In this document: piece after piece, positions 14,379-19,931 of the stretch
How the letters are laid out: every line of letters starts with the position of its first letter
How positions within the stretch are numbered: position 1 is the stretch's first letter
Assembly: GCA_025839675.1 (NCBI GenBank)
Contig: CP104013.1
Coordinates: 2,280,001 to 2,312,000, forward strand
Source of the DNA: Candidatus Lokiarchaeum ossiferum
GTDB taxonomy: Archaea; Asgardarchaeota; Lokiarchaeia; Sigyniarchaeales; Promethearchaeaceae
DNA length: 32,000 bases
Direction of reading: 5' to 3'
Notes under the pieces: generated by a model
Database searches by the model: none
Seen by the model: only the letters and a program-made list of their open reading frames with translations
Told to the model about the DNA's origin: nothing
Program-made: the position numbers and the translations under genes

Positions 14379-14927
14379 ATGGAAGTTCCGAAGTTAAGCA
14401 ATGTAAGAATCATACGAGAAAAGCTTAAATGGACCCAAAAGCAACTTGCCGATGCAGTTGGGATTGGACAATCCTATATCGCCAAAATTGAATCAAATAA
14501 ACAGATACCCTCCTATGAAATCGCCTCCTTAATCTTTCATGTTTTAAATGAAGAATTGTTGAAACAAGACAAAAATCCACCTATTATTCGAAATATTGCC
14601 ACTAAAAAAAGTAAGTTACGTTCCTTGCATCCTTTAGATACATTGAGCACAGCGTTTAGACAAATAGGAGATGTAGATCAGCTTCCTGTCATTGAAGACG
14701 ACCGTTGTGTAGGAGTAATCACTTCACAAATATTGCTCCGGATGGAAAATACTAAAAAATCAAAAGACACAATGGTAAAAGAAATCATGGAAGGGCCATT
14801 ACCTGCCTTTTCTGAAACCACCCCCATAAGTCAGATGCGAGATCTCATGCGTCATTTTTCTGCCGCAATGGTTTTAGATATGAATGGAAAAGTTTCAGGT
14901 ATTATTACACGGTCAGATTTCTTCTAA
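14379..14927 (+). CDS. XRE-type HTH plus CBS-pair transcriptional regulator
   Basis: IREKLKWTQKQLADAVGIGQSYIAKIESNKQIPS is a Cro/C1 HTH. Two CBS motifs follow (..LPVIEDDRCVGVITSQILL.. and ..AAMVLDMNGKVSGIITRSDFF). Confidence 0.85.
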   Translation: MEVPKLSNVRIIREKLKWTQKQLADAVGIGQSYIAKIESNKQIPSYEIASLIFHVLNEELLKQDKNPPIIRNIATKKSKLRSLHPLDTLSTAFRQIGDVDQLPVIEDDRCVGVITSQILLRMENTKKSKDTMVKEIMEGPLPAFSETTPISQMRDLMRHFSAAMVLDMNGKVSGIITRSDFF

Positions 14928-16302
14928 ACAACCCTTTTTTTCTCATTACAAAAAGACCGATAGAAAGACAAGCAAATCCTCCAAGAATAATATAGAGAAT
15001 TGGAGATTTCCTTTCAGGTTCTGGATTATCATAATTCGCTAAGAAAAATAATCCCCGATAAATCAATGCAGAATTATCAATAACCTTATCAGCTGCAGGA
15101 TTAAAGAAATCCCAAATACCTGTATCGCTATAAATTCCAGTGCTTTCATTGAAGGAAGAACGGTATGCTGATTCATTTCCATAAGTTTCTAAACAATATG
15201 CTAAACGATTTTCGGAATGTTTCCAATACATCCACGGAGCAAATAAACCTGCAGGATTTCTCATAGCTCCAGAATGAAAACCTAGTTTAATCTCCAAAGA
15301 TCGAGTTACATTAAAGTAATTGGATAGATCAAATTTTTCTTTTCCCTTTTGATTTTTAATGTATGGGTAGTATATCGCTTGAATGCCAGAATGCAGTGAA
15401 ACAGCAGTTTTGAAAGAGTGTTTAGAAATGAAATTCTTTAAATTTTTTGTGCAATCTTCGGAAAAGGCATATTCGCCAGAATAGATAAATGAATTTTGAT
15501 CTTTTGAGGAAAAAGAAAGATCTCCAAAACCGTAATTATAATTTCGATTTGGATCCGTTCCTTTCATCACAATATCACCGACAATGGAGTCATTATTCAT
15601 ATCTATACCTTCATAACCAGTAATTGATCCTTCAATTTGATCAGTCTTTGTATAATAGGCTTCAATATACCCATTATTGTTCAAATCTGTTAATTCAAGG
15701 TTGGAAAATTCGTACACATCTTTTGGTAAATTCATCCCACTGGTTGTTTTCCGTTGCCAAGGATTGATACTTATGAGCATCGCTCCATCAATATTTAATG
15801 ACGGGATTATATAAATCTCTCGGGAACTTAAGGTGTGCAACGCATCAAAATCTTGTTGTTGTGCATCAAAAATCAATCTATCCATGAAATACAGGGCGTT
15901 TTCAACAGTGATTTGTTCCCGAGCATGATGTTGAGCCACGATAAGAATTTCTTCTTTGGAATTTACAGACATCTTATCTGTGAGTTTAATCCCATAGATT
16001 TCATGATTTAGATGAGTTTTACCTATAGTAAATACCTCACAATAGTTTGGAAATGAAGATTCAAGATCCGTTAATTTTTCAATAATTTCTGTATAATTGT
16101 GAAATTTCCCGAAGGAAGGTCCAAATTGGAGAATATCATCCCCAGCAATATCACCCGGAGCATCACTAAATTCATCCCAAATATATTCATAGTCCGCAGC
16201 TTGATGAAGATGAGCCGTTAGAGGAATAGTTGAAAAAGTAGAACTAGATAAGTTTAAAGAAAGAAAACTGGGAGATGATAATGAAATTATCAAAAATGTC
16301 AT
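14905..16302 (-). CDS. M14-family zinc carboxypeptidase, secreted with a C-terminal transmembrane anchor
   Basis: Zinc and catalytic motifs QHHAREQIT (HxxE), DPNRNYNYGFG and SLHSGIQAIYYPY. C-terminal hydrophobic ILYIILGGFACLSIGLFV followed by RKKG. The start is placed at ATG 16302 (MTFLIISLSS..., signal-like). The track's extra 74 codons (to 16524) read like AT-rich non-coding sequence. Confidence 0.85.
   Translation of the reverse strand: MTFLIISLSSPSFLSLNLSSSTFSTIPLTAHLHQAADYEYIWDEFSDAPGDIAGDDILQFGPSFGKFHNYTEIIEKLTDLESSFPNYCEVFTIGKTHLNHEIYGIKLTDKMSVNSKEEILIVAQHHAREQITVENALYFMDRLIFDAQQQDFDALHTLSSREIYIIPSLNIDGAMLISINPWQRKTTSGMNLPKDVYEFSNLELTDLNNNGYIEAYYTKTDQIEGSITGYEGIDMNNDSIVGDIVMKGTDPNRNYNYGFGDLSFSSKDQNSFIYSGEYAFSEDCTKNLKNFISKHSFKTAVSLHSGIQAIYYPYIKNQKGKEKFDLSNYFNVTRSLEIKLGFHSGAMRNPAGLFAPWMYWKHSENRLAYCLETYGNESAYRSSFNESTGIYSDTGIWDFFNPAADKVIDNSALIYRGLFFLANYDNPEPERKSPILYIILGGFACLSIGLFVMRKKGLFRRNLTV
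14935..14941 (+). terminator. T7 tract 8 nt past the HTH-CBS gene stop, embedded in the convergent carboxypeptidase coding sequence
   Basis: cccTTTTTTTc. The same bases encode the MRKKG segment of the opposing gene's C-terminal tail. Confidence 0.4.
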
Positions 16303-16670
16303 GAAGAAGTGATATTTAATGATATGTTGATTCACACTAAATAAATAATCTGGTAATATTAAAGGAACACACCTATATTTGGAAAATTGTTCATGAAAAA
16401 ATGTATAGACATTGGATATATAGCTTCGATTCGAATTGCACATTGTAATTTTTTCATTATTTTGATATAAATATTCCAAACCAATTGCATTAATGATCCC
16501 CAATATTTTTAGAAATAAGAACATCCTTTCAGAGATAGCAAATTAAAAATTCATGCGATTTTTTTTTTATTTATCATTAAATGAATTAGAACCTATCAAT
16601 CCGTTGAAATTATATAGATTATACCATTTAATTTATCTAAGCAATTCAATGTATAATTGATGTGACAGTT

Positions 16671-17324
16671 ATGGGTTTTAAAGATAAGTTAAAAAATTCC
16701 TTTGAATCGGTTTCCGATAAACTTCAAACTATGAGTTCAAGTTTGACAAAAGTTATAAAAAGTGCTAAAGATTCAAGTAAATCTCACGAAAAATTAAGTG
16801 AAGATAAAAAAGAAGAAGCAACAGCACTGAAAATCCTGATGGAAGAATCCTCAGAGAAATTTAAGGAAATTTCCAAACCATTTAATGAGATTTTTGCGAA
16901 CATAGAGGCAAAACGGTTAGAAATGACTCAAGAATTGAATGCTCAATTCATTCAACCATTAGAAGGATTAGTACAAGATTGGTTAGCTTTACAAGATGTT
17001 ATTAAAGAGGAAGAAAAGGCTCAAAAAAACCATCTGAAGGCAAAAAACTCTCTCGAGAAAAAACATCAAAAATTTGAAAAAACACCTGAGAAAATGAAAC
17101 CAGGTGAGATTGATAATGCAGCAACAGAAGTAGCAAATTGTTTTGATCAATTAAAAATAAAACAAGAAGAAAAAGAAAAAGTGGCTGCAGAATACGAAAA
17201 GAAGAAAAGTACGATTTTATCGCAAGCTCTATCAGATTCCATAAAAATTCAAGGCAAATTCCATCAAAATGTTGTAGATAACCTTGTTGATGCAAATGAA
17301 ATTTTGGAAACCTTAAATTCTTAG
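16671..17324 (+). CDS. All-helical K/E-rich coiled-coil protein (about 217 aa), BAR-domain-like candidate
   Basis: ORF with ATG at 16671 (track starts at GTG 16662). Heptad-like charged helices throughout. Amphipathic N-terminus MGFKDKLKNSFESVSDKL. See findings for the BAR-like layout. Confidence 0.6.
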   Translation: MGFKDKLKNSFESVSDKLQTMSSSLTKVIKSAKDSSKSHEKLSEDKKEEATALKILMEESSEKFKEISKPFNEIFANIEAKRLEMTQELNAQFIQPLEGLVQDWLALQDVIKEEEKAQKNHLKAKNSLEKKHQKFEKTPEKMKPGEIDNAATEVANCFDQLKIKQEEKEKVAAEYEKKKSTILSQALSDSIKIQGKFHQNVVDNLVDANEILETLNS

Positions 17325-17342: not shown

Positions 17343-17362
17343 TTTTTTTGTCGTTATTTTTT
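17343..17362 (+). terminator. Oligo-T tracts (T7, T6) after the coiled-coil gene
   Basis: tcTTTTTTTgtcgttaTTTTTTcccc, about 20 nt after the stop. Confidence 0.45.
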
Positions 17363-17475: not shown

Positions 17476-17769
17476 ATGTTCCTAAAACACGCACCCTATT
17501 ATTCCATGCAATTTCCTCGCCGAAATACAACCATCATCCCTCAAAATGAAGAAGAAATGCAAAAAATTGTCCAAATTCTTTCAAGATCAAACATTTCATA
17601 CGATTCATCGACCAAAGGTCGGATTATTATCAAAATGAAACCAATTGATACTTTATTAAAAATTGATCATTATTTAAAAGAAAATAAAGCAAATGAACTT
17701 TTTAATAGTAAATTAGCTAATATTATCAAAAATGATTTCAAAACCATCTCGTTACTAAAAGCTTTGTAA
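17476..17769 (+). CDS. Hypothetical small protein (97 aa from ATG 17476)
   Basis: ORF bracketed by oligo-T tracts on both sides. The track start is TTG 17425, and I prefer the first ATG. No motif recognised. Confidence 0.4.
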   Translation: MFLKHAPYYSMQFPRRNTTIIPQNEEEMQKIVQILSRSNISYDSSTKGRIIIKMKPIDTLLKIDHYLKENKANELFNSKLANIIKNDFKTISLLKAL

Positions 17770-19709: not shown

Positions 19710-19931
19710 ATGCATAATATTCCTTCCCCGAAACTACCACCATCCCCTCCAACGACAAAAGCGATAAAGAAAGAAAATTTTTGTATGATTCATAAAGGAC
19801 CTATCCAAGGGGAAACTTATACATGTAAATGCGGTGCACAAATGTGTAGAAATTGTGCAACAGAACGGAAGAATAATTCTCAAAACCGATTATGCCCTGT
19901 CTGTTCCTCAGTCATTTTTCTGAAGTCTTGA
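19710..19931 (+). CDS. Small Pro-rich protein with RING-like cross-brace zinc finger
   Basis: C25-x2-H28-x10-C39-x-C41-x4-C46-x2-C49-x12-C62-P-V-C65 provides eight ligands with RING-like spacing and a terminal CPxC. Confidence 0.55.
   Translation: MHNIPSPKLPPSPPTTKAIKKENFCMIHKGPIQGETYTCKCGAQMCRNCATERKNNSQNRLCPVCSSVIFLKS

Follow-up and report, generated by a model that had tools for sequence, protein, structure and literature searches.

BAR domains had been noted in Lokiarchaeum by 2016 (PMC4917890), and from the outset it has been a question whether those of Asgard archaea bend membranes. We analyzed a 32,000-nucleotide stretch of the Candidatus Lokiarchaeum ossiferum genome (contig CP104013.1, forward-strand positions 2,280,001 to 2,312,000; here "the window," to whose first letter coordinates refer unless stated otherwise), in which a short gene had been described from its sequence as coding for an all-helical, BAR-like protein. 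Does this gene encode a BAR domain and, if so, of which kind and with what likely role?

The gene and its product

16671..17324, + strand: bar1, encoding a 217-aa stand-alone classical BAR domain, ATG to TAG (GNAMCCOK_01913/UYP45610.1 by position and mass)
17343..17362, + strand: two T-runs past the stop codon, likely an archaeal oligo-T terminator (weak; from sequence)

The 217-aa open reading frame (ORF) of the preliminary description is present, running from the ATG at 16671 to the TAG at 17324, and the segments quoted from it are found in its translation. An alternative GTG start at 16662, 9 nt upstream, would give a 220-aa product. We rejected it, as this form would have a mass of 25.06 kDa (the proteomic value is 24.73 kDa) and homologs with 70 to 86% identity begin at the Met of the ATG. 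Since the mass fits the 217-aa form only (24.731 versus 24.73 kDa), the ATG at 16671 is the right start.

Radler et al. found two BAR-domain proteins in a Lokiactin coimmunoprecipitation (co-IP), neither of them significantly enriched (bioRxiv 10.1101/2025.11.30.690169; Nature PMC13716822), and their supplement gives Bar1 as GNAMCCOK_01913/UYP45610.1 and Bar2 as GNAMCCOK_03871/UYP47554.1. To place our gene among these tags, we interpolated by ORF count between eight anchor genes on the genome (leave-one-out error of at most 13). The expected tags were 1912 for this gene (Bar1, 1913), 3874 for a 451-aa paralog (Bar2, 3871), and 2139 for a third paralog. The monoisotopic masses of the first two, 24.731 and 51.362 kDa, correspond to the tabulated 24.73 (Bar1) and 51.36 kDa (Bar2). 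Because the interpolated tag and the mass agree, we identify this gene as Bar1. The protein is thus already known, since the 2025 preprint gives it this name and the Nature paper of 2026 includes it in its count, which limits novelty here; the available parts of these reports only list it as a BAR-domain protein and give no subfamily, structure, or activity.

According to the published data, Bar1 expression is steady and fairly high: it appears in all 16 proteome columns with a mean of 19.06, at about rank 340 of 3,061 (an estimate from file position). The gene is also covered by metatranscriptome contigs, which add little, as they come from a single study and give neither transcript level nor transcript ends. 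Contigs from two runs of that study stop at 17362/17364, and those of another run go on to 17816. A further run, from sediment and of small share, was left out. A sigma-70 promoter scan stayed at chance level, the sigma-70 model not being applicable to archaea.

An M14 peptidase gene lies divergent from bar1, and a 97-aa ORF followed by a HisKA_2 kinase gene lies downstream. All three are syntenic with bar1 only in relatives at 70 to 86% identity and were absent from the short flanks of distant bar1 homologs, so no functional link with bar1 is inferred. The 97-aa ORF (17476 to 17769, directly 3′ of bar1) has no Pfam match and is kept at 67 to 87% in three close loci, and it is therefore a real orphan gene. 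The M14 carboxypeptidase ORF as listed (14905 to 16524, minus strand) is probably overlong at its 5′ end, one ortholog being called at 512 aa and homology beginning near 16443 or later. Elsewhere in the window, positions 19710 to 19931 encode a 73-aa RING-like zinc finger (weak zf-RING_4 match, E = 0.001) that is 88% identical in close relatives.

Predicted fold and dimer

16671..16730, + strand: residues 1 to 20, amphipathic and weakly basic, candidate H0-like membrane-inserting helix (μH; pLDDT of 47 to 56; outside the predicted interface)
16731..16850, + strand: helix α1, about residues 21 to 60, antiparallel dimer contact (dimer prediction, alignment)
16854..17081, + strand: helix α2, residues 62 to 137, with conserved R82 and kink Pro96 (model, alignment; FAM92A residues from PMC12269497)
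16956..16958, + strand: Pro96, the α2 kink, equivalent to Pro167 of FAM92A; 52 of the 53 aligned domains have Pro here (alignment)
17082..17105, + strand: α2-α3 tip loop, residues 138 to 145, motif P-E-K-x-K-P-G-E with basic K141 and K143 (model, alignment)
17106..17318, + strand: helix α3, residues 146 to 216, with K179, L187, and F197-H198 (model, alignment)

The AlphaFold2 model of Bar1 bears out the all-helical layout, with three long helices (residues 4 to 60, 62 to 137, and 146 to 216; 57, 76, and 71 residues in length). Its mean pLDDT is 91, and only residues 1 to 20 are uncertain. When the model was searched with Foldseek, the first 50 matches all belonged to the BAR superfamily. The TM scores were 0.81 for SNX5, 0.78 for FAM92A (9uhd), and 0.78 for amphiphysin (4atm), with classical BARs spanning 0.72 to 0.81 at a root mean square deviation (rmsd) of 2 to 3.5 Å; in comparison, I-BARs reached 0.49 to 0.55 (rmsd, 6 to 8 Å) and F-BARs mostly 0.27 to 0.49. 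VIA-align gave Z scores of 16.4 for arfaptin, 15.8 for BIN1, and 15.2 for FAM92A1, with SNX5 and ACAP1 also at 15 to 16, where helical bundles can reach a Z of ∼13 by chance. The top BAR matches superposed at an rmsd of 2 to 3 Å over about 190 to 200 residues. A fold search of the ESM Atlas returned nothing above a TM of 0.51, which is evidence neither way. Judged by superposition of the monomer model, the curvature of Bar1 is of the classical type and not that of an I-BAR or F-BAR.

The preliminary description had named an ESCRT-III/PspA-type hairpin as an alternative. The model instead takes the form of a BAR protomer with three long helices. PspA and ESCRT-III chains did not appear among the listed Foldseek and VIA-align matches or among the Pfam matches of family members, an absence from lists that does not amount to exclusion.

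A homodimer prediction for Bar1 scored 0.78 (best control, 0.00). Of 30 solved pairs, 20 attained this level, as did 1 of 23 single chains, and the score of Bar1 may stem from solved BAR dimers that the predictor remembers. The pLDDT was at least 86, and at least 95% of contacts agreed between runs. The predicted contacts are antiparallel, α1-α1′ centered on L42 and α3-α3′ centered on H198, and the interface begins at residues 22 to 24. The predicted two-fold axis of the dimer falls at H198, which corresponds to the F263-H264 region of FAM92A. Of the dimer foreseen in the preliminary description, an antiparallel six-helix α1/α3 arrangement is thus predicted; of the basic residues of a FAM92A-like concave face, Bar1 keeps the distal stripe and tips and two of five in the central patch, at a net charge of −3 (see below).

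A FAM92/CIBAR-like family found mainly in one archaeal order

By itself, Bar1 passes no Pfam cutoff. Its best match, nearly full length, is FAM92 (PF06730) with an E value of 0.26 and 11.1 bits, below the gathering score of 23.6 bits. Its relatives are more informative. A phmmer search of 1.8 billion representatives found 35 of them, and 25 of 61 related genomes had a match; among 27 aligned relatives, 17 matched FAM92, 10 matched BAR_3, and 4 matched BAR, and one relative passes Pfam IMD. A profile built from 53 archaeal family sequences found the crystal structures of the FAM92A/CIBAR1 BAR domain with E values of 1.7e-21 and 2.2e-19; endophilin, IRSp53, and amphiphysin came next, all near 5e-4. 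The family aligns to FAM92A gap-free up to the tip loop and shares with it R82, P96-L97, and the F-H motif. Because relatives match FAM92, BAR_3, and BAR and the profile reaches 1.7e-21, the BAR likeness is more than coiled-coil mimicry. The call of a BAR domain is thereby upheld, profile and fold searches alike returning BAR domains and not generic coiled coils, and on the strength of sequence and model together we regard Bar1 as a classical BAR-domain protein. By profile, FAM92/CIBAR is its closest eukaryotic BAR subfamily; the amphiphysin/Rvs type, with which the preliminary description had compared it, is more distant (about 5e-4 versus 1.7e-21). A feature search of the Atlas placed a Promethearchaeota FAM92/BAR cluster first (0.95), and eukaryotic CIBAR and BIN3 clusters came next. 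Many relatives are already labeled PF06730 or NCBI "BAR domain-containing protein" in the databases.

In the genomes searched, the family was seen largely in one order. Across 301 genomes of the phylum, in a survey that scored nine candidates per genome, the profile matched 26 genomes in the order of L. ossiferum (the window's genome counted) and had one match outside it, which we rejected as a false positive, a long and unrelated coiled-coil protein. Twenty genomes passed the Pfam FAM92 cutoff, every one of them from this order, as against none of 14 control genomes. Some database matches carry the labels Thor-, Hod-, or Hermodarchaeota (as database labels only). The only names returned by a single-protein locus scan were Ca. 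Sigynarchaeum springense and a metagenome-assembled genome of the Promethearchaeota. In an archaeal-only tree, Bar1 falls in a well-supported (100/99), long-branched clade with stand-alone copies from its own taxonomic family. In a sister subclade, the α1-α2 turn is shortened and the tip is 10 residues longer, and several members have a Lys/Thr-rich C-terminal tail. The contig of one relative carries two stand-alone family genes ∼15 kb apart (485 to 1123 and 16140 to 16784). A 483-aa protein from a genome of the same taxonomic family has PBS-lyase HEAT repeats with a BAR domain fused after them (locus positions 721 to 2169). A search for longer fused forms returned none but is uninformative, as it also missed a known 498-aa tandem protein.

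The L. ossiferum genome holds two more family genes, each encoding two BAR repeats in one chain:

Genome position 4484207 onward (locus positions 1501 to 2856): Bar2 (UYP47554.1 by tag position and mass), 451-aa tandem two-BAR protein
Genome positions about 2539650 to 2541290 (locus positions 571 to 2211), minus strand: second tandem two-BAR paralog, ∼530 to 547 aa, with a Lys-rich C-terminal tail

In the Bar2 model (pTM, 0.80), a short flexible linker connects two three-helix units, an arrangement consistent with an internal pseudodimer. In the published Lokiactin co-IP, Bar2 had a log2 value of 1.66 (P = 0.026; adjusted, 0.075). The second tandem paralog has no Pfam match and is not among the two named Bar proteins. 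The C-terminal halves of the tandem proteins all fall in one clade of the archaeal-only tree (99/98). If the tandem proteins do satisfy their interface internally, Bar1 would be left to pair with itself.

Basic residues and divergence of Bar1

Up to the tip loop, mouse FAM92A residue numbers equal Bar1 numbers plus 71, which places the FAM92A concave-face residues K183, K194, R201, and R205 at K112, K123, K130, and K134 of Bar1. These four positions are K/R in 70 to 96% of relatives against a background of 18% (K130, 96%; K134, 89%). They belong to a basic stripe on distal α2 (K112, K116, K119, K123, K130, K134, and K137), and residues 116 to 145 carry a net charge of +7. As a charge periodicity, the α2 stripe is marginal (P = 0.01 to 0.04 at 100°; not significant at 102.9°).

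In FAM92A, most lipid binding is carried by a central α1 patch (R108, K109, R112, R114, and K116), whose mutation removes ∼90% of it (PMC12269497). Bar1 keeps two of these five residues (K37 and K41); the position of FAM92A K116 is D45 in Bar1 and E/D in 85% of the archaeal family. The protein as a whole has a net charge of −3 and a pI of 5.9. A YAxxETPxL motif at the α1-α2 turn, present in most relatives (Y in 39, E in 44, and P in 34 of 53), has been lost in the clade of Bar1, where it is degenerate at residues 56 to 64, and several α1 core positions are polar (S35, S38, and E49). Going by these residues, Bar1 is a divergent family member that has lost YAxxETPxL and three of the five central basic residues and has kept the basic tip cluster.

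Proposed function and alternatives

We favor the following reading, to which we assign a probability of roughly 0.65. Bar1 would be a cytoplasmic, peripheral-membrane classical BAR protein of a Lokiarchaeales FAM92/CIBAR-like family, forming a membrane-docking crescent that senses or stabilizes positive curvature. Two copies would form the crescent homodimer, and its concave face may dock on anionic archaeal lipids, for example, through inositol-phosphate head groups; the inositol-lipid synthesis genes MIPS and PIPS are listed as expressed in the available data of Radler et al. Docking would occur mainly via the lysine stripe and the tip loops at the two ends of the crescent, and the amphipathic N-terminal segment would assist. 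The curvature in question would be positive as seen from the cytoplasm, as it is where protrusions start or branch, at constrictions, or in shallow invaginations. In a cell whose actin-filled protrusions are branched, bases, branch points, or constrictions would be the places to expect Bar1, in preference to the shaft. Bar1 would not line the interior of protrusions, because that needs I-BAR geometry. Any association with Lokiactin would probably be weak or indirect, as Bar1 has no SH3, PH, or WH2 domain. In the published co-IP, it was represented by seven peptides (41% coverage) with a log2 value of 0.94 (P = 0.093; adjusted, 0.18), and it was also found in two of three IgG controls.

One possible variant, compatible with the crescent reading but less probable than it, treats Bar1 as an N-BAR protein in which residues 1 to 20 are a true H0 wedge and bending comes mostly from its insertion instead of from the crescent. 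Residues 1 to 18 have a μH of 0.49 (shuffle P = 0.02) and a net charge of +1, with similar values in most relatives, and residues 1 to 20, which the model leaves poorly ordered, take no part in the predicted dimer interface. The N terminus of FAM92A1, moreover, inserts into bilayers (PMC6314547). The short amphipathic N terminus claimed in the preliminary description is present. In the model, residues 1 to 20 continue α1 without a linker, at low confidence; they align to the α1 start of FAM92A, and FAM92/CIBAR proteins are classical BARs without extra helices (PMC11266426). Amphipathicity alone does not establish an H0, since 13 of 200 other windows of Bar1 score higher, the helices of the bundle being amphipathic anyway.

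The main rival to the crescent reading, which we consider unlikely, accepts the BAR fold and dimer and makes Bar1 mainly a protein-binding scaffold with little bending activity, either arfaptin-like (e.g., for an Arf-type GTPase) or with a FAM92-like partner. The weak central patch and the overall acidity of Bar1 would fit such a role, arfaptin is among the tied top VIA-align matches (Z, 16.4), and FAM92A binds CBY1 through its BAR domain. An Arf GTPase is also significantly enriched in the Lokiactin co-IP, as reported in the available data of Radler et al. A scaffold of this kind explains less well why no surface feature is better conserved than the basic tip residues, counterparts of lipid-binding residues in FAM92A, or why the amphipathic N terminus is conserved, and no partner gene is conserved beside bar1.

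That Bar1 is I-BAR-like, lining and supporting Lokiactin-filled protrusions from inside, seems improbable. L. ossiferum does make actin-filled protrusions (Radler et al.), Bar1 is present in the Lokiactin co-IP, and the profile has weak matches to IRSp53/IBARa (E of about 5e-4) alongside the single relative that passes IMD; against this, classical BARs fit the model far better (TM scores of 0.72 to 0.81 versus 0.49 to 0.55), and the I-BAR matches trail that to FAM92A by 17 orders of magnitude. A generic K/E-rich coiled coil or an ESCRT-III/PspA hairpin that mimics a BAR domain could account for the failure of Bar1 alone to pass a Pfam cutoff and for chance Z scores of ∼13, but is already contradicted, and hardly credible, given the family match to FAM92A with its shared R82, P96-L97, and F-H residues, the 20 genomes passing the FAM92 cutoff against 0 of 14 controls, and helix lengths that misfit the ESCRT-III layout.

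More speculatively, and in our view doubtfully, the Lokiarchaeales BAR family could be a true archaeal sister (ortholog) of FAM92/CIBAR, a subfamily that would then predate eukaryotes, with Bar1 and Bar2 shaping the bases and branch points of actin-driven protrusions. If true, this would foreshadow what FAM92 does at the base of cilia. Because the matches came almost exclusively from a single Asgard order, the family may have descended vertically, been lost in other lineages, or been transferred from eukaryotes.

Bar1 is the only single-domain family member found in a cultured, motile Asgard archaeon, and because it is single-domain, well expressed, small, and soluble, it is the simplest candidate for liposome and localization work. 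In the literature searched, we found no lipid-binding or tubulation experiment on Bar1 and no paper linking Asgard BARs to FAM92/CIBAR, many subscription papers being outside reach.

Comparison with known systems

Proteins of the ESCRT-III/PspA type have a long α1-α2 hairpin followed by short helices α3 to α5, whereas all three helices of Bar1 are long (57, 76, and 71 residues). I-BAR/IMD domains are flat or zeppelin-shaped protomers with a C-terminal fourth helix, whereas Bar1 has only three helices and matches them at a TM of ∼0.5. Amphiphysin/BIN1/endophilin N-BARs (PF03114), arfaptin, SNX-BARs, and the APPL BAR share with Bar1 the classical fold and monomer curvature (TM of 0.7 to 0.8), yet their profile matches are at about 5e-4 or worse, and Bar1 lacks the SH3, PX, or PH domains of this group.

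Other Asgard BARs are known from the literature (PMC4917890; PMC10307638), which, like Bar1, have an Asgard BAR fold and are listed as eukaryotic signature proteins. These include a putative BAR protein of Lokiarchaeum (PMC4917890) and the Asgard Vps5-BAR and the Thorarchaeia Vps5-BAR-Vps28 fusions reported in 2023 (PMC10307638). Bar1 is stand-alone, carries no Vps28 fusion, is not near ESCRT genes, and has FAM92 rather than Vps5/SNX as its best eukaryotic match.

The nearest eukaryotic system is formed by FAM92A/CIBAR1 and FAM92B/CIBAR2 (PF06730; PDB 9UHD and 8CEG). Identity to Bar1 is ∼18% in structural alignment, Bar1 has no C-terminal tail, and the YAxxETPxL turn common to FAM92A and most archaeal relatives is missing from it; FAM92 proteins also work together with CBY1 at cilia and mitochondria, a setting absent from archaea. 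Within these differences, length, colinear alignment, and the three helices are the same, as are the α2 kink proline (Pro167 in FAM92A, P96 in Bar1) and the basic tip and distal α2 residues, and the predicted antiparallel α1 and α3 contacts of Bar1 match interfaces 1 and 2 of FAM92A (PMC12269497). With this likeness to FAM92/CIBAR, the question of the origin of eukaryotic BAR domains becomes more pointed.
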